Origin: Verrucomicrobiia bacterium
GTDB lineage: Bacteria; Verrucomicrobiota; Verrucomicrobiia; Limisphaerales; Palsa-1400
Length of the DNA stretch: 64,000 bases
Assembly (NCBI GenBank): GCA_036501665.1
Contig: DASXZW010000063.1
Span: 8,214 to 72,213, forward strand
Direction of reading: 5' to 3'
The notes under the pieces were generated by a model. That model made no database searches, was not told the DNA's origin, and was given only the letters and a program-made list of their open reading frames with translations. This document shows positions 938-9,100 of the stretch, piece by piece (the first letter of the stretch is position 1; every line of letters begins with the position of its first letter). The position numbers and the translations under genes are program-made.

Positions 938-1165
938 TTATTCATTGAAGCAGGGGCTGAGACGGAAGGTCTCGATACAGTTCTGACAGACGCAGACGCG
1001 GTTCTGAAATTCACGCGGTATTCGCGCAAGCAATCCATCGGGAATGTTTATCCTGGCGCACCAACAAGGACCCTTGTAGGCCGATGAGACACAAAGCTGG
1101 CATTCGTTCCCATGATGGCATAATGGGCACTTCTCGCCGTTGGTGGAAATTTCATTGAGGGTCAT
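938..1165 (-). CDS. cysteine-rich CWC family protein
   Basis: These are the last 75 codons of ORF 938..1393, read from ATG 1165. The pattern [16 protein letters not shown]...VCVCQNC matches the Cys-rich CWC family. It overlaps the upstream gene by 14 nt, which suggests the same operon. Confidence 0.6.
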
Positions 1166-1934
1166 ACATGGAGTTGTTGGAAGAAAGGAATCCTGTTCCC
1201 GAGACCACGCTATTTGCGCCGTCGGCATTATTGGTATAGCAGCCCCGAAGGGATTCGGCGTGGCCATCGCAGAAAGCGCCGTTGCTGAGTTGTTGATGGC
1301 GGAAACCTTGTGTTCCGCCCCAACGGCCGATGAAATTTTCGTCGCCGGGATTTGGCCAGGGAGCGCGCATGAATTTATCAGCGCCAGAGGCATATTGGCC
1401 GTCGCCGAAAAGGATTGTTCCGCTTGAGCGAAGCACGTCTGAACCTTTTGCGGGATCGGGGATTGATTCCTGTTGGCCGTGGCCGATGTAACTGGTGTTG
1501 TAGTTGTAGCCAGTGTAGGGATCAGTCATCCAGTCGGAAGCGCCAGTGTATGAAGGACATTGTTGGATTTGGGCCATTGTCTGACTTTGCCAGAGCAATC
1601 CGGGAATGACCGTTTGGGGACTGCCATAGACCGTCGTCAGGTCCCAGCATTCGGCTTCCATTGTGTCGCCGTTCTGAACATAGCAATAAGCAATTGGGTA
1701 GGTGTTGCGATTGTCATCCAAATAGACGCTTGCGGCGACTCCCATTTGGCGAAGGTTGCTGATGCACTGGATTCGCTTGGCTTCCGCTTTTGACCCGGTC
1801 AACGCCGGCAAAAGAAGAGCAGCAAGAATGGCGATGATGGCGACCACCACAAGCAGTTCAATTAACGTAAAGGCAAAACAACGCGCCCCTGCGCCGGTTA
1901 AGCGGCATGAATCGGAGCGCGTGGTTCTGTTCAT
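1152..1934 (-). CDS. prepilin-type N-terminal cleavage/methylation domain protein, DUF1559 (H-X9-DG) family pseudopilin-like
   Basis: [26 protein letters not shown] is the type IV pilin-like leader and hydrophobic helix. The C-terminal [12 protein letters not shown] matches H-X9-DG. Confidence 0.85.
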
Positions 1935-2055: not shown

Positions 2056-4182
2056 TTATTGAATGACGAGCAGGCGATAAAAGGCCTGGTTTGCGGGTGG
2101 GCTGGGGTCCTGCAGGATCAGGTTTCCGACGCTAACAGGCGTGACAGTCGTTACCGGAGTCCAGGTGAGCAAATCGGTTGATCGTTGCAGCGTGTAGGAG
2201 ACATTGGCAAACGGGGTGAATTGGAAACTCGGGCCGCTTGCGTTCGGTTGCGCGGACAATACAGGCGGCGTCATGCGGGTCACAACCAGGGCGGATAGGT
2301 TTGTCGCGCTGGAAATCCATGCTTCATTATTAGTCGCAGCAAGCGTGAACGGAATTGTATTCCAATTGGTCCAGCTCCATTGCAGGACGCGCAAATCGCC
2401 ACCCGCGCCGACGTAATTCCGACCGACGCTTAATCCGACATCCGCAACGATGGTGGTGTTTCCGATGTCCGAAATCGGAGTTGCCGATAGTTGACAGGCG
2501 TTGAGCACAGTTCCAGGAACCGGCGCAAACGCTGAAAATCCACCCAAAGGAACGGCGCTGACCACGGCGTTGGTGACGACGGATTGAACGTTCAATTCGA
2601 CGGCAGTCAGAGTTGAATCTCCCGGAGACTGAAAGGCGAGATTGGTTATTCCTGCATCAATGTCGTCGCTGGTGATCGTAAGCGTATCGCCTTCAACGGC
2701 GGGATTTACCGCGGCGATGGAGTCGATAACGGTGGATGAGCCTGGGGCGGGTTCAATGCGGACATATTGAATCCACGGAAAACCCGATGCTTGCAGATTA
2801 TATCCGGTGCCGCCAGCGGAACCGTCGTAATGATCTAACGCGCTGAAAGCCGTTTGGCCCTCAAAATCTGTCGAATAAATTGCGGGGTCAAGCGGCTTGG
2901 TGGGGTTGGATTGCTCCAATTTCCACGAATGATTTGGACTGTCCCACCGGTACGCGTTTTGAGGGTAGAGCTTTGCCGTGTTGTCAAACGAATACCAATT
3001 TGTGCCGTCGGGGCTCACGGAAACCGTGGCAGAATGGCCGTTGGTTCCGCTGCCGAGAGTGATATCGTCAAGGTCAGTCGAATCGCTGACTGTTCCGGTT
3101 GAGCCGAAGGGCGAAAAAAACGAATTGCCATAGACGATAAGGTCCATGCCGTAAGGATTGTTAGCGTTGTGATATACTTTGCGTCCCATCTTCACGGTGA
3201 TTTGTCCGCCGTTCGTGATTTCCGTGATTAAGTCATTGCGTCCAGGCCCGACATTGTAGGGAGGGTCAATGATGCTGCATCGATTGGTATCGCCGCCGGC
3301 GGCTACATCGAAGAACGTGAGCGAGGGCCGGCCGAGAACGGCATTGGGATTGTCGTAAGGAGGCATCGCAAGGACGTTGCTGGAGCTGACGACCTGAACA
3401 GCGAAGTCGTTCGTGTCCGCCACATAGGCGACGTATGTTCCATCGGGTGATGGGGGGGCTTGTTCGTCATTATTGTAGGCTGCTGTGGCGGCGTCGGCGG
3501 TATTCGTATCGTATCCGGCTGCGGAAACTGAGAAGCCAAGCCATGAACCGTCTTTGATTGGAAGTGTATCCAAACCAAATTCGGCGAACTCCCACTGCCC
3601 GTGAACATAAGCATTACCATCCCAAAATTGATTGGTTCCCCGATCCGGTGAAGCCGGCAACCCCCCGGCGTCATTAAGCTCGGTCCAGGAATTCCAGTTT
3701 GGACCATAATAACCGCCCCAATACAAATCACCATTGTTGACTGGCGATGAGGAATCGATGTTCAAAGCGGGATCGAGTAGAATTCCGTTTTTGAAGGCAG
3801 CGGCGGTGTAGCTCTGGCTTCCATCGGTCACGCCAAAATTTCCCGTTCCGTTGAGGTTATAGCCAATTCCTTCGACATAAGTGCCGTAGGTATCGACGAC
3901 AACCGCGTAGAGGCGGTGATCGGAGGCCAAAATAGCTTTGAACATCTCGGCGCCGGTGGCTTCGCCGTTGAATTTGTAGCCCCAGACCATTGTTTTATTG
4001 GCGACAGGCGCGGGAACCGTGCTGTTGTTGAAAAATTCCGGGGAATTCCACTCGATGACAAGCGCGGCGCGATTGGTGCCGGACCCGGCCCAGAGCTGGA
4101 TATTGTTGGTGGTGATAGCGTGGACGTTGGGAAGCAGGGCGCAGCCGGCAAGGGCCAGCGCGCAGCGGATTCTTTTTATCAT
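2056..4182 (-). CDS. secreted protein of unknown function (708 aa), first gene after the cobalamin riboswitch
   Basis: It has a signal peptide (MIKRIRCALALAGCALLPNVHA) and no catalytic motif was recognised. The C-terminal tail SYTLQRSTDLLTWTPV...AFYRLLV is common in secreted PVC proteins. Confidence 0.8.
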   Translation of the reverse strand: MIKRIRCALALAGCALLPNVHAITTNNIQLWAGSGTNRAALVIEWNSPEFFNNSTVPAPVANKTMVWGYKFNGEATGAEMFKAILASDHRLYAVVVDTYGTYVEGIGYNLNGTGNFGVTDGSQSYTAAAFKNGILLDPALNIDSSSPVNNGDLYWGGYYGPNWNSWTELNDAGGLPASPDRGTNQFWDGNAYVHGQWEFAEFGLDTLPIKDGSWLGFSVSAAGYDTNTADAATAAYNNDEQAPPSPDGTYVAYVADTNDFAVQVVSSSNVLAMPPYDNPNAVLGRPSLTFFDVAAGGDTNRCSIIDPPYNVGPGRNDLITEITNGGQITVKMGRKVYHNANNPYGMDLIVYGNSFFSPFGSTGTVSDSTDLDDITLGSGTNGHSATVSVSPDGTNWYSFDNTAKLYPQNAYRWDSPNHSWKLEQSNPTKPLDPAIYSTDFEGQTAFSALDHYDGSAGGTGYNLQASGFPWIQYVRIEPAPGSSTVIDSIAAVNPAVEGDTLTITSDDIDAGITNLAFQSPGDSTLTAVELNVQSVVTNAVVSAVPLGGFSAFAPVPGTVLNACQLSATPISDIGNTTIVADVGLSVGRNYVGAGGDLRVLQWSWTNWNTIPFTLAATNNEAWISSATNLSALVVTRMTPPVLSAQPNASGPSFQFTPFANVSYTLQRSTDLLTWTPVTTVTPVSVGNLILQDPSPPANQAFYRLLVIQ

Positions 4183-4260
4183 GCTGATCTTTCAATGAGG
4201 TTCGCCGAGAACATTTCGGAGAACGGGTTGTGATTGAGAGACCAGCGCCGAGCCTGGGGA

Positions 4261-4311
4261 CGAAAATGAAAATGCCTCCAGACTCCGGCAGAACCGAGAA
4301 TGAAGGCATTC
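4261..4311 (-). terminator. intrinsic terminator forming the riboswitch expression platform
   Basis: The minus strand reads GAATGCCTtcattCTCGGttctgCCGgAGtctggAGGCATTTTCATTTTCG. The outer stem is AATGCCT/AGGCATT, with an inner stem and a U-rich tail. It lies 80 nt upstream of the start codon at 4182. Confidence 0.5.
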
Positions 4312-4399
4312 AAAAGAACCCGCCGAAAAATCGTTTCAGCGGCCTGGCCTCATCCTTCTCTTTGTCGGAGAAGCGGCCTCGCAAAGGCGAAGCCCGACG

Positions 4400-4595
4400 A
4401 GCGTAACCGCGCTGATGTCCTGACTTTCGGGCTTCGAACCTTCCTCCCGCCTTCCCGGCTCGCGAACGAACCAGTGGCTGATGGGAGTTTGTAACCCGTC
4501 ACAGTGGCGCAACCGTCCTCGATTCTCACGAGGTTCCCAGCGTTGGCTACGATGGATGGAAAACCATCCTCTGACTTTCAAAGAACGAGCTAGAA
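4400..4595 (-). promoter_or_regulatory. cobalamin (B12) riboswitch aptamer
   Basis: The minus strand carries, in the canonical order, GGGAACCUCGUGAGAAUCGAGGACGGUUGCGCCACUGUGA, then AGCCACUGGuucguucgcgaGCCGGGAAGGC, then the B12-box-like AAGCCCGAAAGUCAGGAC. Boundaries are approximate. Confidence 0.8.
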
Positions 4596-4716
4596 ATAAA
4601 CCTTTGGCGGCGGGATGCAAGAAGAATTGGTTTTGGTTGACCCATTTTGCTTGGACGCTTCATGAGCGCTCGACGAAAACTTGCGAAAATGCCGATTAAC
4701 GCGGATAGTTTGGAAG

Positions 4717-4965
4717 ATGAGCATCGCTGCAGAAAAAGTGGCCGAGGTATTAGGTTTGCCGGAACAGGATCGCGCATTTCTTGCCCGCGAACTTATTGCT
4801 AGTCTTGACAACATTGTGGACGCTGATGCCGAAGTGGCATGGAATGAAGTCATTGACAGACGATCCCGTGAATTGAGAGAAGGCCGGGTGGACGCGCGCT
4901 CAAATGAAGATATGATTCGCGACATCCGGGCCAAATTGAGTGCTGCACATCGTCAGACATCCTGA
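4717..4965 (+). CDS. addiction-module antitoxin (putative addiction module component type)
   Basis: From ATG 4717 the protein reads MSIAAEKVAEVLGLPEQDRAFLARELIASLD...AWNEVIDRRSRELREG, a typical small antitoxin paired with ParE-like toxins. It overlaps the next gene. Confidence 0.7.
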   Translation: MSIAAEKVAEVLGLPEQDRAFLARELIASLDNIVDADAEVAWNEVIDRRSRELREGRVDARSNEDMIRDIRAKLSAAHRQTS

Positions 4966-5242
4966 GGTCTCAGGAGAATTGGAAGCCGCAGCGCTCTGGT
5001 ATGAAGATCGTGAGCGAGGCTTGGGGACCGAATTTCTGGATGAATACCAAAATACGCTCGACCGAATTTTGGAAGAGCCTGACCGTTGGAGAAAAATCAA
5101 AGGAGACAATCGCAAGCTTAACTTCCGACGCTTTCCCTACGCGATTATCTACAACGTGAACGCCACTACACTTTATATTGTGGCCGTTATGCACCTTTAT
5201 CGCCGGCCTTTTTACTGGTCGCAACGCCTGCGCTCAAAATAA
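4940..5242 (+). CDS. type II toxin-antitoxin system RelE/ParE family toxin
   Basis: HPEVSGELEAAALWYEDRERGLGTEFLDE...FRRFPYAIIYNV...IVAVMHLYRRPFYW follows the ParE-like plasmid-stabilisation pattern. It starts with GTG and overlaps the antitoxin by 26 nt. Confidence 0.75.
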   Translation: MLHIVRHPEVSGELEAAALWYEDRERGLGTEFLDEYQNTLDRILEEPDRWRKIKGDNRKLNFRRFPYAIIYNVNATTLYIVAVMHLYRRPFYWSQRLRSK

Positions 5243-5255
5243 CAACTTTTGACTA

Positions 5256-6143
5256 TTAAAAGACCCGCAACGTCTCGAGGACGGCGCGGATTCGGGGGAC
5301 TTCATGGGTGCGGAATAAATCTGTTTTTCCGAGGGCGGCGAGGACGGCGAAAAAGGGTTCGGCGCAACGCACTTCCTCGCCAAAATATTCGAACGCGTGA
5401 GGGAGCGCGTGGCAAACTGGAAAACCGAGCGAGCGCAGGCGGAAGCTGTTCAAAAACGTCGTCATTTGATGGCGCACACGGGCGGCGCTGTCGTTCAAGT
5501 TGCGGTAGTAGAAGCCAAGTCCGGGGTCGATTAGAATTTTCTCTGCGCCGGCTTGCGTCGCCATTTCAATCATGCGGGCAAAATATTCGCGCATCGCGCC
5601 GATGACATCACCGCTTAAATCAAAGTCACCCACCTCCCGGACATTCGGGCCTTGTACATGACAAATAATCGCCGCGGCCTGATGCTCCGCGACAAGCTTG
5701 AAAATGTCGCCGGCCTCCTCTACTCCTGTCAAATTGATCACCGCCGCCCCGGCTTCAAGGCAAGCCCGCGCGACTGGGGCGCGATATGTTTCGACGGAAA
5801 CAAGAATCCCGGCGGAAGCAAGGCCGCGAACCACCGGCAGCAGTTTATCCCGCTGGGCCGATTCATCCAACAAGGCAGCGTGGGCAAGGGTGGACTCCGC
5901 TCCGACATCAATAATTTTTGCACCCTGCGCCCGCAGTTCCTTGCCCCGTTCGATGGCGCGGTCCGCTGTCAAACAGACACTTTCGCGATACCAGGAATCC
6001 GGGGAAAGATTGATGACGCCCATGTATTCGGGCGCGCTGTTGAATGCAAACTGTTCCCTGCCGATGGAGAACTCGCGGACTTTTGCTGTCGCGGCGTCGC
6101 GATATTTTTCCAGCAATTCCGCCAGATGCTCCAGCGAGAGCAT
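5256..6143 (-). CDS. dihydropteroate synthase-like pterin-binding domain protein (divergent)
   Basis: The DHPS fold signatures GVINLSPDS, IIDVGAEST, VSVET, LIDPGLGF and RTHEV are present. The start is taken at MLSLEH (ATG 6143-6141), which overlaps the upstream stop as TAATG. Confidence 0.65.
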   Translation of the reverse strand: MLSLEHLAELLEKYRDAATAKVREFSIGREQFAFNSAPEYMGVINLSPDSWYRESVCLTADRAIERGKELRAQGAKIIDVGAESTLAHAALLDESAQRDKLLPVVRGLASAGILVSVETYRAPVARACLEAGAAVINLTGVEEAGDIFKLVAEHQAAAIICHVQGPNVREVGDFDLSGDVIGAMREYFARMIEMATQAGAEKILIDPGLGFYYRNLNDSAARVRHQMTTFLNSFRLRSLGFPVCHALPHAFEYFGEEVRCAEPFFAVLAALGKTDLFRTHEVPRIRAVLETLRVF

Positions 6144-9100
6144 TATTTCTTGAACGCCGGGTTGTTCCTCTTTCCGCCAGTTTCGAGGTATGCCACCAAG
6201 TCCCAAATCTCGGACTCGGTCATCGAATTGACCAAACCGTCAGGCATCGGCGACACTTTGGAGAGCCGGCGACTTTGGATGTCAGATTTTTGGATTTCGA
6301 CCTTGGTTCCCTTGATCGGCTCGGTCATCAAGACGATTTTTTGAGCATTCTCTTCGACGATGCGGCCAGTTTTAACGTCGCCGTCCTTCGTTTCAATGAT
6401 CGTGTTTTGGTACAACTCGGAAACGACCTTTGACGGTTCAATGATTGACTCTAAAACGTCGTGCGGACTGAGGCGGCTTCCGACGGCGGCCAACTCAGGC
6501 CCGACCGAACCGCCGCTGCTGCCGAAGCGATGGCACAGAATGCACTGCGCCTGAGTGTAGGCGGCTTTGCCCTTCGCGAACGAGCGTCCTGACTTCGCCT
6601 GGTCAATGTCTGGTTGCAGGTCTTCAACGGTCCACGCTTTGACGAATTTGCTTTTGGATATTTTCGGACCCGTTGAGTCAGTGTCCTTCGGGAGATAGTC
6701 AACCAAAGCAATCTGATCGGACGGCGACAGGTTTTGCACGAATTCATTGCGGAAATTTTTGATGAAGGTCGGAAAGCTTGAGCCGTCGCTGTAATCGCGC
6801 GTCACATCCTTGAAAAACTGCAAAATGTCCGCCGGATGCCCGGCTTTCTCGTGGTCTTTCTTGAACCAGGAAAGGTAATCCTTCTGCTGGTCCAGCGTCC
6901 ACCCATCAACGATATTGCGAAGGCGCAGAACGTAATACGTTTGCTCCTCCTGCGTCGGGGCTTTGTCCAACAATGCGAGAGTTTTGCCGATGGCATCGGG
7001 CGCTTTGAGATAGAGGAGCAACTGGCAAAGTTCACGGTTCACGTTGAAATCGTCCGCGGGATACATCGGGTCCAATTCCGCGACGAGCGGCGTGGCCTGC
7101 TCGGTTTCCGGCTCACCCTGGCGGGCGAAACTGACTTCCAGCACGCGCAATTTCAGCAGTTCGAGTTGTTTGTCCATTCCGGTGAACGGAAACTTTTTCA
7201 ACGCGTTGAGAAGCGGGCGTTGTGTTTCAGGGCCGCCAATCCGCGCCAGCGCAAGCAGCGCAATCATTCCGGTTTCTGGATCGCTCTCCGCCAACGCGCG
7301 GGACTTCCACCATTGGACATCCTGCCATTCCAATGCGATGCGGGCTGCGTAGCGAATCCAGCGGTCGTCGCTGCCGAGGCTTGACCATACGGCATCGACA
7401 ATCCGTGGATCACGTTCGCCGTACAGCGATTCCAAATCGTGGCGCAGGCGGCGGCCTTGTTTTCCGGCGGCTTCATCGGCCAGTTGCCCGGGAGTCTTTC
7501 TCGGCTCCACATATTTTCCGCCGACATACGTCAAACGATACAAACCCGACTCGATGCCGCGACCGCCCGTCGTGAAATAAAGAGCGCCGTCGTTGCCGAA
7601 TTGCAGCCCGGTGAGGTTCAGCGGCGTCCCGCGAAGAACTGTTTCAACGCTGGCGTGATAACTCGCGCCGTTTGGCGTCAGATGAACGGCGAACAATCTT
7701 CCATAGGACCAATCCTCCATCCAAAAGGCATCTTTGTAAGGTTTCGGAAAATCAGACCGGGTGCCGAACATCACGCCCGTCGGCGAGCCGAGTCCGACGT
7801 TGACAAGCGCCGGCAAAGTGTCTTCGTAATATGGCGGAAATTTCCCTGATCCTTCGTGAAAACCGTAATCGCCGCCGGGAACCCAAAGATTGACGCGCGT
7901 TGGGCGATACCAGGCTGTGCCCCAATCCCATTCCATATCGCTGTCAAATCCAAAAAGCTCGCCTTCCGGGCTGAAACCGATGGCGTAAGTGTTGCGAGTG
8001 CCGGCGGCGAACAATTCGACATTTTTCGCGTTCATGTCCATCCGCAAAACGTGCCCGCCAGGCGGCATCATTCCCGCTCCGAAGCCGTTTCCGTCTTCCG
8101 CCCGCTGCAACAATTGGTCATCGGCATAATTGTGGTGAGGCGAGGACGCCAGCAAATCCTTAGGCAAGTGCGTGAAGTTGCCATTAACCATGTAAAGCTT
8201 GTGCTCCGGCCCCAGGACCATATCGTGCGGGCCGTGTTCGCCGCCGTCGTTAAAAGCGCGCAGGAACTCCGGCGCTTCGAACAGATCGCCTTTCGCGCGG
8301 AGCCGGTAAACTCCGTGGCCCTGCGGACCGTCGCCATCGACGTAAAGACAATTATCCACATAGAGCAGCCCCATGGCGGAGGTCACGGGTTGATCAATGC
8401 GTTCGATCTGTTCCACGCCTTTTGGGGAAACTGTGATGCGCAGGAGCTTGCCTTCACTTTGCGGGGAAATAATAAAACGGCCCAGCGGATCAATGGCCAT
8501 TGAGATCCAGGAACCTTCCGTCACGTCGGCGGAGTGCAGCAATTCCAGCTTGAACCCGGGTTCAACGGTGATCGATTTCAACGGCGTTGCCTGCGGGGCC
8601 ACAAAAATATCGCCCCAAGGCTGGTCGCCGAGTTTTGCGACGCTTACGGCGTGATGCCAGGACGAATCGTCGAAATTCACCTTCGTCCAATTCGTCCCAG
8701 GCTTGTCGTTTGAAAACACCCAACTGCTGTCGGTGATTAAGGTATCATTCCACTGCAATCCCGCGTGAGCTTTTGGGTTGTATTCCTGGTGCGCTGCGCC
8801 GGTCGTCGGCATCGTCATTTGCAGGCGCAAGATCAAGCCCGCTGTGGACTGCTCGTTTTCGCACCGCACTGCGATGACGTTTTGGCCCGGAACAATTCGC
8901 CGGGTGACATCGACGTATTTCGGTTTTTTCCAATCATCGACGGTCCCGACTCTCGAACCGTTGATGAAAACCTCGGCCTTGTCGTCGCCGCTGAAGGCGA
9001 TGCGCGATTGGATCAAGCCGTCCTTCGCTGTAAATGTTTTGCGGAAATAGCGAACTTCCTTGGTGGTGGATTCGTTGTTGCTGGAGGTCCAAATCCATTG

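Follow-up and report, generated by a model that had tools for sequence, protein, structure and literature searches.

Cobalamin riboswitches are the most widespread riboswitch class. A kissing loop formed by L5 is common to all of them (PMC7367189), and in the repressing corrinoid riboswitch of Priestia megaterium metE the logic linking P13, antiterminator and terminator was shown by mutagenesis (PMC10327014). Here we describe a comparable leader in a 64,000-nucleotide stretch of a Verrucomicrobiia bacterium (contig DASXZW010000063.1, positions 8,214 to 72,213), referred to in full as the window. The minus strand from about 4620 to 4183 appears to be the 5′ leader of a three-gene operon with a Cbl-I-type riboswitch, most likely repressing transcription through a terminator/antiterminator switch, a reading that we hold with good, though not full, confidence. 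The main interest lies in its conserved, cross-phylum link to an uncharacterised module of secreted, pilin-like and CWC proteins.

A cobalamin aptamer on the minus strand

Rfam 15 covariance models were run over the whole window, and a single family, RF00174 (Cobalamin), exceeded its gathering score: the match at 4539-4413 on the minus strand reaches 70.7 bits against a gathering score of 31.5 (E 2e-15 for the window, 1.9e-17 when the region alone is searched). A permissive Rfam scan of 4150-4750 returned nothing credible beyond this family. The alignment is local, spanning model positions 45-169 of 189, and the core strings (GGGAA, P4 GGUG..AA..CC, GCCACUG, CGGGAAGGC and the B12 box AGYCAGGA) are all present, aligned and in consensus order; they are invariant in 12-40 relatives. 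The P6 peripheral extension is also present (model positions 87-160 aligned), and its arm (4497-4430) and distal hairpin covary. Because this extension separates Cbl-I from Cbl-II, its presence places the element in the Cbl-I type. The aptamer comprises the following parts.

About 4550-4403, minus strand: cobalamin (corrinoid) aptamer with its covarying outer helix, recognised by RF00174 and helix covariation
4533-4517, minus strand: P4 hairpin
4514-4506, minus strand: P5/L5, GG-UUGCG-CC, with L5 UUGCG at 4512-4508, placed by Rfam alignment
4478-4449, minus strand: peripheral arm with GCCACUGG..CCGGGAAGGC
4425-4410, minus strand: B12 box AGUCAGGACAUCAGCG

The structure was examined in a whole-leader alignment of 40 related loci, to which pairing frequencies and locus counts refer unless another sample is named, with slid pairing partners and 500 shuffles as controls. 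A hand-built consensus covering the aptamer, platform hairpins, terminator and start-codon helix pairs in 86.9% of cells, compared with 38-53% when partners are slid; 55 pairs show compensatory changes, and 0/500 shuffles reach any of the measures. Covariation is carried by the outer helix (compensatory changes at 6/6 pairs), P4 (4/5 pairs), the peripheral arm and two hairpins of the downstream platform, H1 and H3. The outer helix lies outside the local Rfam match and is still present, as GUAGCC/CGCUG (4550-4538) with CAGCG/GGUUAC (4414-4403), and relatives form it with other sequence (GCAGUCAAA / UUUGAUUGC). A family-specific covariance model, trained on relatives, gives 146.5 bits for 4561-4393. 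An upstream hairpin was considered as Rfam P2 and rejected, since the 44 model positions at the 5′ end give a poor fit in the full-length Rfam alignment, even in relatives.

An initial annotation had proposed a cobalamin riboswitch in a 530-bp gap between the gene for a 708-amino acid (aa) protein and a divergent antitoxin/ParE pair; gene calls of the source contig leave 534 bp. Its quoted aptamer strings lie on the minus strand as given (GGGAACCUCGUGAGAAUCGAGGACGGUUGCGCCACUGUGA from 4538; AGCCACUGG, 11 nt and GCCGGGAAGGC ending at 4449; AAGCCCGAAAGUCAGGAC at 4434-4417), as do its hairpin AAUGCCUUCA...UGGAGGCAUU (4310-4271), the following UUCAUUUUC(G) ending at 4261 and the ATG at 4182. The covariance-model match bears out the proposal, and the conserved strings thread onto the consensus secondary structure, whose helices covary across the leaders. 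Membership of the class is confirmed in this way; the element is an ordinary new member, nothing new in kind, and is predicted to bind a corrinoid.

The riboswitch accompanies the same genes across phyla

A scan of 185,579 species genomes yielded 73 loci with homologues of the 708-aa protein, and a cobalamin riboswitch lies upstream of the gene in 66 of them, distributed over Verrucomicrobiota, Planctomycetota, Armatimonadota, Bacteroidota and one Desulfobulbus. Rfam models detected it on the same strand upstream in 10/10 close loci and also in 10/10 distant loci sharing just one protein domain (the N-terminal ~90 residues in Bacteroidota; the middle domain in Planctomycetota, Armatimonadota and Desulfobulbus), and five further distant loci were positive in an additional run. 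The family covariance model, trained on 12 of these riboswitches, matches all 45 Verrucomicrobial loci with upstream DNA and one fragment (131-177 bits). Six of the seven riboswitch-negative loci have less than 460 nt of upstream DNA; the remaining one, L048, gave no riboswitch match in 6 kb of upstream sequence and is the sole such exception among the 73. Carriers of the operon include a cultured relative, Limisphaera sp. (L041), and the tractable planctomycete Gimesia maris (L061). Since the linkage is kept across phyla, it argues for a part of the operon genes in acquiring or handling corrinoids outside the cytoplasm.

A conserved platform with a predicted intrinsic terminator

In most of the 46 Verrucomicrobial leaders examined, some 200-215 nt separate the aptamer from the ATG, and the platform that fills this stretch (~215 nt from aptamer to AUG) is conserved. 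The order of its elements is identical in all 27-40 aligned leaders: CUCGUC, a variable hairpin H1, an invariant hairpin CUUCUC-CGCAAA-GAGAAG, GAUGAGGCCAG, a variable hairpin H3, a hairpin with U-tract, CUGGUCUCUCAA, a variable hairpin H5, UUGAAAGAUCAG and the AUG. In the window these correspond to the following.

4401-4396, minus strand: linker CUCGUC, pairing with GAUGAG at 4354-4349 (98.8% paired)
4394-4375, minus strand: variable hairpin H1, with compensatory changes at 8/8 pairs
4373-4355, minus strand: candidate P13 hairpin CUUCUC-CGACAAA-GAGAAG, invariant, stem 99.2% paired, loop L13 at 4367-4361
4367-4346, minus strand: proposed 5′ half of an antiterminator, made of L13, the P13 3′ strand and GAUGAGGCC, extended to 4344 to take in GAGGCCAG (4351-4344)
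4342-4320, minus strand: conserved hairpin H3, CCGCUGAAA-CGAUU-UUUCGGCGG, with a covarying stem
4310-4262, minus strand: predicted intrinsic terminator, a conserved stem-loop (4310-4271) and U-rich tail (U-tract UUCAUUUUC, 4270-4262)
4245-4184, minus strand: post-terminator structure, in which CUGGUCUCUCAA (4245-4234) pairs with UUGAAAGAUCAG (4195-4184) around hairpin H5 (4224-4200)

Comparison across loci supports 4310-4262 as an intrinsic terminator, with termination itself predicted. At least 6 U occur in the 9 nt after the hairpin in 36/40 loci (mean 7.0), and the hairpin folds at -18.5 kcal/mol in the window, with an average of -15.6 kcal/mol. Pairing in the lower stem reaches 89%, and 4 of its 7 pairs show compensatory changes, which are seen in 1-2 loci apiece. 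A simple terminator scan with a loop rule of 3-8 nt missed 4310-4271; it flagged H3 (4342-4320), but at least 6 U of 9 follow that hairpin in just 2/40 loci and it was set aside. A leader peptide was likewise rejected, the AUG in GAAUGCC being missing from many loci (GAAUUUCC).

A kissing loop and an antiterminator as the proposed switch

Complementarity kept in at least 85% of leaders was scanned for, and beyond the hairpins this returned GGGAAG (aptamer core):CUUCUC, CUCGUC:GAUGAG, CGCAAA:UUUGCG (terminator loop), GAGGCCAG:CUGGUCUC, CUGGUCU:AGAUCAG and UUCUUUG (5′ leader):CAAAGAG. In addition, L5 (UUGCG, 4512-4508) is complementary to CG-A-CAA (4367-4362) over 5 bp that are paired in 98.5% of cells, compared with 50-69% when slid; variation consists of one compensatory change from G-C to A-U (locus L009) and one wobble. 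As L5 matches the loop CGCAA of the invariant hairpin, that hairpin is taken to be P13 and its loop L13, and L5-L13 is a candidate kissing loop.

The strand formed by L13, the P13 3′ side and GAUGAGGCC pairs end to end with the 5′ strand and loop of the terminator, and this pairing is kept in 88.7% of cells compared with 50-64% slid. Mean duplex energies are -17.9 kcal/mol for the antiterminator, -15.3 for the terminator hairpin, -13.0 for shuffled sequence and -6.7 for P13, and GGGAAG:CUUCUC is paired in 99.6% of cells. The terminator-type platform of the initial annotation is upheld by the recurrence of the same hairpin and U-rich tail in 36/40 loci and by the existence of a conserved antiterminator alternative, and its choice of hairpin over H3 was right (36/40 against 2/40 U-tails). 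Minimum free energy (MFE) folding by itself does not reveal mutually exclusive folds.

In the corrinoid-bound state, L5 (4512-4508) of the aptamer would kiss the P13 loop (4367-4362) and thereby hold the weak 6-bp P13 (CUUCUC/GAGAAG) and the closing helix CUCGUC:GAUGAG in place; the terminator would then form, and RNA polymerase would stop at the U-tract. In the unbound state P13 would open, 4367-4346 would pair with the terminator 5′ strand and loop as an antiterminator, and the operon would be transcribed. This second state would be favoured by pairing of the aptamer-core GGGAAG with the P13 5′ strand CUUCUC.

Two other assignments were tried and dropped. In one, which had suggested that no kissing loop exists, hairpin CCACUGG..CCGGGAAGG was taken as P5 and its loop compared with that of H1 (1.83, control 1.84); this was the wrong loop, L5 being UUGCG by Rfam. 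In the other, the aptamer purine tract (GGGAAGGCGGGAG..) was the direct partner of the terminator 5′ strand. RNAduplex often prefers this pairing, but would do so for any pyrimidine-rich strand; the P13-derived antiterminator is closer and full-length, and the tract is kept only as a possible helper (GGGAAG:CUUCUC).

Several observations weigh against repression by terminator and antiterminator. Even when no ligand energy is added, MFE folding favours the terminator by 9-14 kcal/mol; since it always keeps the terminator, the ON state would have to be kinetic, as is usual for transcriptional riboswitches. With the terminator 3′ strand blocked, MFE folding found no consistent ON-state partner across loci. 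No significant covariation is found in the antiterminator among the 40 leaders, where both strands hardly vary, and with a platform so nearly invariant the kissing loop rests on conserved complementarity and a single compensatory event; L13 of the window itself requires a bulged A (1 nt) to match L5. Four GC-rich relatives have weak U-tracts, and the invariant 5′ leader motif and the conserved helix beside the AUG go unexplained by a terminator model. None of the known B12 protein families is matched by the regulated proteins, and we infer ligand binding, termination and the direction of regulation from sequence.

The conserved start-codon helix is the strongest ground for a different reading, namely a genuine aptamer that acts chiefly on translation, with CUGGUCUCUCAA:UUGAAAGAUCAG hiding the initiation region, GAGGCCAG:CUGGUCUC opening it according to the aptamer state, and the hairpin and U-tract secondary or acting jointly. 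The outer helix CUGGUCUCUCAA:UUGAAAGAUCAG ends 1 nt before the AUG and is sequence-invariant and 93.3% paired, around an inner hairpin that covaries. CUGGUCUC, complementary to GAGGCCAG (4351-4344), pairs with it in 98.8% of cells against 44-62% when slid, and the RNAalifold consensus picked this pairing; riboswitches of the E. coli btuB type do control translation (PMC10327014). However, without termination it is difficult to account for a conserved U-rich tail right behind a conserved hairpin in 36/40 loci, the two layers are not independent since GAGGCCAG and the antiterminator overlap, the sequestered strand contains no obvious Shine-Dalgarno sequence, and the helices, because they are invariant, show no covariation. 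We regard mainly translational control as rather unlikely, although the start-codon helix may add a translational layer to the transcriptional switch.

Far less probable is an activating (ON) riboswitch in which ligand-stabilised P13 prevents the terminator. Corrinoid riboswitches of this kind exist, for example at A. halodurans cobT (PMC10327014), but here P13 (4373-4355) shares no position with the terminator (4310-4271) and every fold accommodates the two, the competitor of the terminator is the P13 3′ strand and not P13 itself, and repression is typical for secreted scavenging-type genes. That the sequence only resembles an aptamer, by chance or as a decayed remnant, and has no function might be suggested by the local match (model 45-169) and by its 5′ part, poorly aligned even in relatives; this is effectively refuted by an E-value of 2e-15, a present and covarying outer helix, and retention upstream of homologous genes in 66/73 loci of several phyla. 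Transcriptional repression through the terminator and antiterminator is the reading that we prefer, and the conserved ~215-nt platform offers a place to dissect kissing-loop-driven termination.

The 5′ leader and promoter region

Upstream of the aptamer, two further features come from comparison with related loci.

4620-4593, minus strand: tentative sigma-70-like promoter, TTGCAT at 4620-4615 and TATTTC at 4598-4593, indicated by comparison only
4586-4554, minus strand: 5′ leader segment outside the Rfam model, with invariant GUUCUUUGAAAG (4586-4575) and hairpin GGAUGG-UUUU-CCAUCC (4569-4554)

A TTGnnA ... GTAAA pattern is conserved at the candidate promoter site, and a promoter scan returned nothing on the minus strand; TTGCAT/TATTTC is a weak, tentative candidate for a sigma-70-like promoter. 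G(U/C)UCUUUGAAA is near-invariant, and the hairpin that follows it is found in every locus with differing sequence by eye; as aligned, 38-51% of its cells pair and covariation is not established. The complementarity of UUCUUUG in this leader to CAAAGAG of P13 holds in 97% of cells.

Divergent from this region, on the plus strand at 4681-5242, the window encodes a type II toxin-antitoxin pair (Unstab_antitox and ParE_toxin). The pair is absent from all related loci and has therefore probably been inserted locally, between folP and the operon of the riboswitch.

The regulated genes encode secreted, pilin-like and Cys-rich proteins

Three genes follow the leader.

2056-4182, minus strand: first gene, a 708-aa secreted protein with signal peptide, N-domain (~22-250), middle domain (~251-497) and C-terminal beta-sandwich domains
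1152-1934, minus strand: second gene, a 260-aa prepilin-type, pseudopilin-like protein, identified by Pfam and NCBIfam
938-1150, minus strand: probable third gene, a ~70-aa Cys_rich_CWC protein (PF14375, E 9e-12)

The 708-aa protein has no Pfam or NCBIfam match even at E 10, the Plug and TonB_dep_Rec domains of BtuB, the TonB-dependent transporter, among them, and no match to Protein Data Bank (PDB) sequences with either the single sequence or a profile. Its more than 260 homologues are all named hypothetical and come mostly from Verrucomicrobiota of soil and peat metagenomes. An AlphaFold2 (AF2) model of the whole protein (predicted local distance difference test, pLDDT, 90; predicted TM-score, pTM, 0.88) is a string of beta-sandwich domains, and Foldseek searches with this model and with a model of the N-domain (pLDDT 84) found no significant PDB neighbour. 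The highest TM-scores for the N-domain are with transcobalamin 7qbe/4zrp (0.30-0.32 on the query) and 3u7z (0.62 on the target), at E 3-8 and probability at most 0.13. We take 3u7z to belong to DUF4430. That family corresponds to the transcobalamin C-terminal domain (PMC4350170), and the possible likeness of the modelled N-domain to the transcobalamin beta domain/DUF4430 serves as a lead only.

The 260-aa protein matches PF07963 (N_methyl, E 4e-6), TIGR02532 (1.4e-5) and, weakly, DUF1559, and has an N-terminal prepilin cleavage/methylation motif with a hydrophobic helix. By tblastn its homologue adjoins the 708-aa-family gene in 60/73 loci, with Planctomycetota copies at 41-53% identity. The Cys_rich_CWC open reading frame lies directly 3′ of the pilin-like gene, is conserved in 28 related loci and is uncalled in the gene set of the source contig; a listed 151-aa reading frame (938-1393) runs into the pilin gene and has probably been drawn too long. 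A CWC protein is also found inside a Sulfurospirillum corrinoid biosynthesis cluster (PMC7755780).

Module variants and a possible role in corrinoid capture

The module is organised differently in different lineages. In a Planctomycetaceae locus it is split, and the riboswitch is followed by a PEP-CTERM protein of 203 aa that shows weak colinearity with the N-domain (E 5e-5), a 313-aa middle-domain protein and a DUF1559 pilin-like protein. In Parabacteroides the N-domain motif (45% identity) occurs in a 576-aa protein with Big_2 and a type IX secretion system (T9SS) tail, behind a 111-bit riboswitch. Seven Verrucomicrobial loci (L037, L038, L042-L044, L046 and L049) encode the N-domain as a separate ~320-aa protein, and a split variant thus exists inside Verrucomicrobia as well; the adjoining pilin-like gene is only ~31-33% identical there. 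Judged by these architectures, three phyla export the N-domain by three different routes, each behind a B12 riboswitch: the surface-sorting signal is a C-terminal domain in Verrucomicrobiota, is PEP-CTERM in Planctomycetota and takes the form of a T9SS tail in Bacteroidota.

The module is probably B12-related. A more specific proposal is that it forms an unrecognised extracytoplasmic corrinoid-acquisition module of Verrucomicrobiota, Planctomycetota and Armatimonadota, one domain of which extends to Bacteroidota as well: the N-domain of the 708-aa protein (possibly transcobalamin-beta/DUF4430-like) and its jellyroll-like middle domain would capture B12, the prepilin-like (H-X9-DG/DUF1559-type) protein would hand the ligand across the envelope, and the small Cys-rich CWC protein would complete the set. 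We consider this possible but somewhat short of probable, and rate some corrinoid-related role above capture or uptake as such. The literature yielded no paper linking cobalamin riboswitches to prepilin or DUF1559 proteins, nor anything relevant that ties them to Verrucomicrobia proteins. The prepilin-like (DUF1559/H-X9-DG) group of Planctomycetes-Verrucomicrobia-Chlamydiae (PVC) bacteria is very large and unexplained. A riboswitch acts as a functional label, indicating that the genes behind it respond to corrinoids, and here the label would extend to more than 260 'hypothetical' secreted proteins and a prepilin-like subfamily. Proteins that abound in Verrucomicrobia of soil and peat thereby gain a first function that can be tested, namely B12 capture or uptake.

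Further observations at related loci

Second, weaker matches of the family model occur at L018:9437-9606 (67.6 bits) and L029:487-652 (57 bits), a few kb from the main riboswitch, which suggests that some genomes carry further B12-regulated units nearby. In a metagenome-assembled genome (MAG) of Desulfobulbus sp. (contig_61008; L050:1503-1858), a cobalamin riboswitch of 113.5 bits and a c-di-GMP-I-GGC (cyclic di-GMP) aptamer (64 bits, gathering score 59) share a strand, the second lying 94 nt behind the first. The gene string downstream of both has three paralogous homologues of the middle domain among its members (5866-8807), and the two aptamers may form a tandem two-ligand leader. A DUF805b RNA motif (40 bits, gathering score 35.6) lies near a Tannerella B12 locus (L072:3289-3325, minus strand). 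Ten Verrucomicrobia-type operons (L001, L007, L011, L013, L014, L017, L025, L027, L036 and L048) stand on contigs labelled Baltobacteraceae, Bifidobacteriaceae, Sulfotelmatobacter, Pseudomonadales, Dongiaceae or Altiarchaeota, which are probably mis-binned contigs or mislabelled MAGs.

Comparison with known systems

The closest described system is P. megaterium metE (Cbl-I, transcriptional, repressing; PMC10327014). Both leaders combine an RF00174-type aptamer with a peripheral arm and an L5-L13 kissing loop, here a candidate, onto a short P13, whose 3′ side can pair as an antiterminator with the 5′ strand of an intrinsic terminator farther downstream; in both, P13 is weaker than the antiterminator (here -6.7 and -17.9 kcal/mol). 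Unlike metE, the family of the window uses UUGCG/CGCAA for L5/L13 and not the usual CCC/GGG type, and its two extra conserved hairpins (H1 and H3) and closing helix make up a multi-helix domain of ~215 nt. It also carries an invariant motif in its 5′ leader and, next to the start codon, a conserved helix.

With the translational riboswitches E. coli btuB and env8 the leader shares the aptamer class, the kissing-loop logic and, as proposed here, control of a B12 acquisition function. Those elements hide the ribosome-binding site without a terminator, whereas the window has a hairpin and U-tract 80 nt before the AUG, and its first gene, having no Pfam match, is not a TonB-dependent transporter like that of btuB.

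Among proteins, the Foldseek matches with the highest TM-scores for the N-domain model are to the transcobalamin C-terminal (beta) domain/DUF4430, at E 3-8 and a probability of about 0.1, and the N-domain differs from these in having no sequence similarity to them and no Pfam match. The 708-aa protein resembles BtuG, BtuH and the jellyroll BtuJ/DUF4465, accessory B12 binders at the Bacteroides cell surface (PMC8941943, PMC10404256, PMC13398666), in being, by prediction, extracytoplasmic, riboswitch-controlled and beta-rich. For DUF4465, binding of B12 was assayed by a pink colour on the Ni-column, a 361-nm shift and ITC (PMC13398666). It differs from them in that no sequence or fold match to DUF4465 or another solved structure reaches a meaningful E-value: there is no PF14717 match and no PDB sequence match, and no BtuJ/D5EK51 entry is among the Foldseek matches listed; BtuG and BtuH are not matched either. 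Relatives of the N-domain do occur behind cobalamin riboswitches in Bacteroidota, there with a T9SS tail. No BtuB or ABC transporter gene adjoins the operon of the window, which pairs its secreted protein with a prepilin-like partner gene instead.

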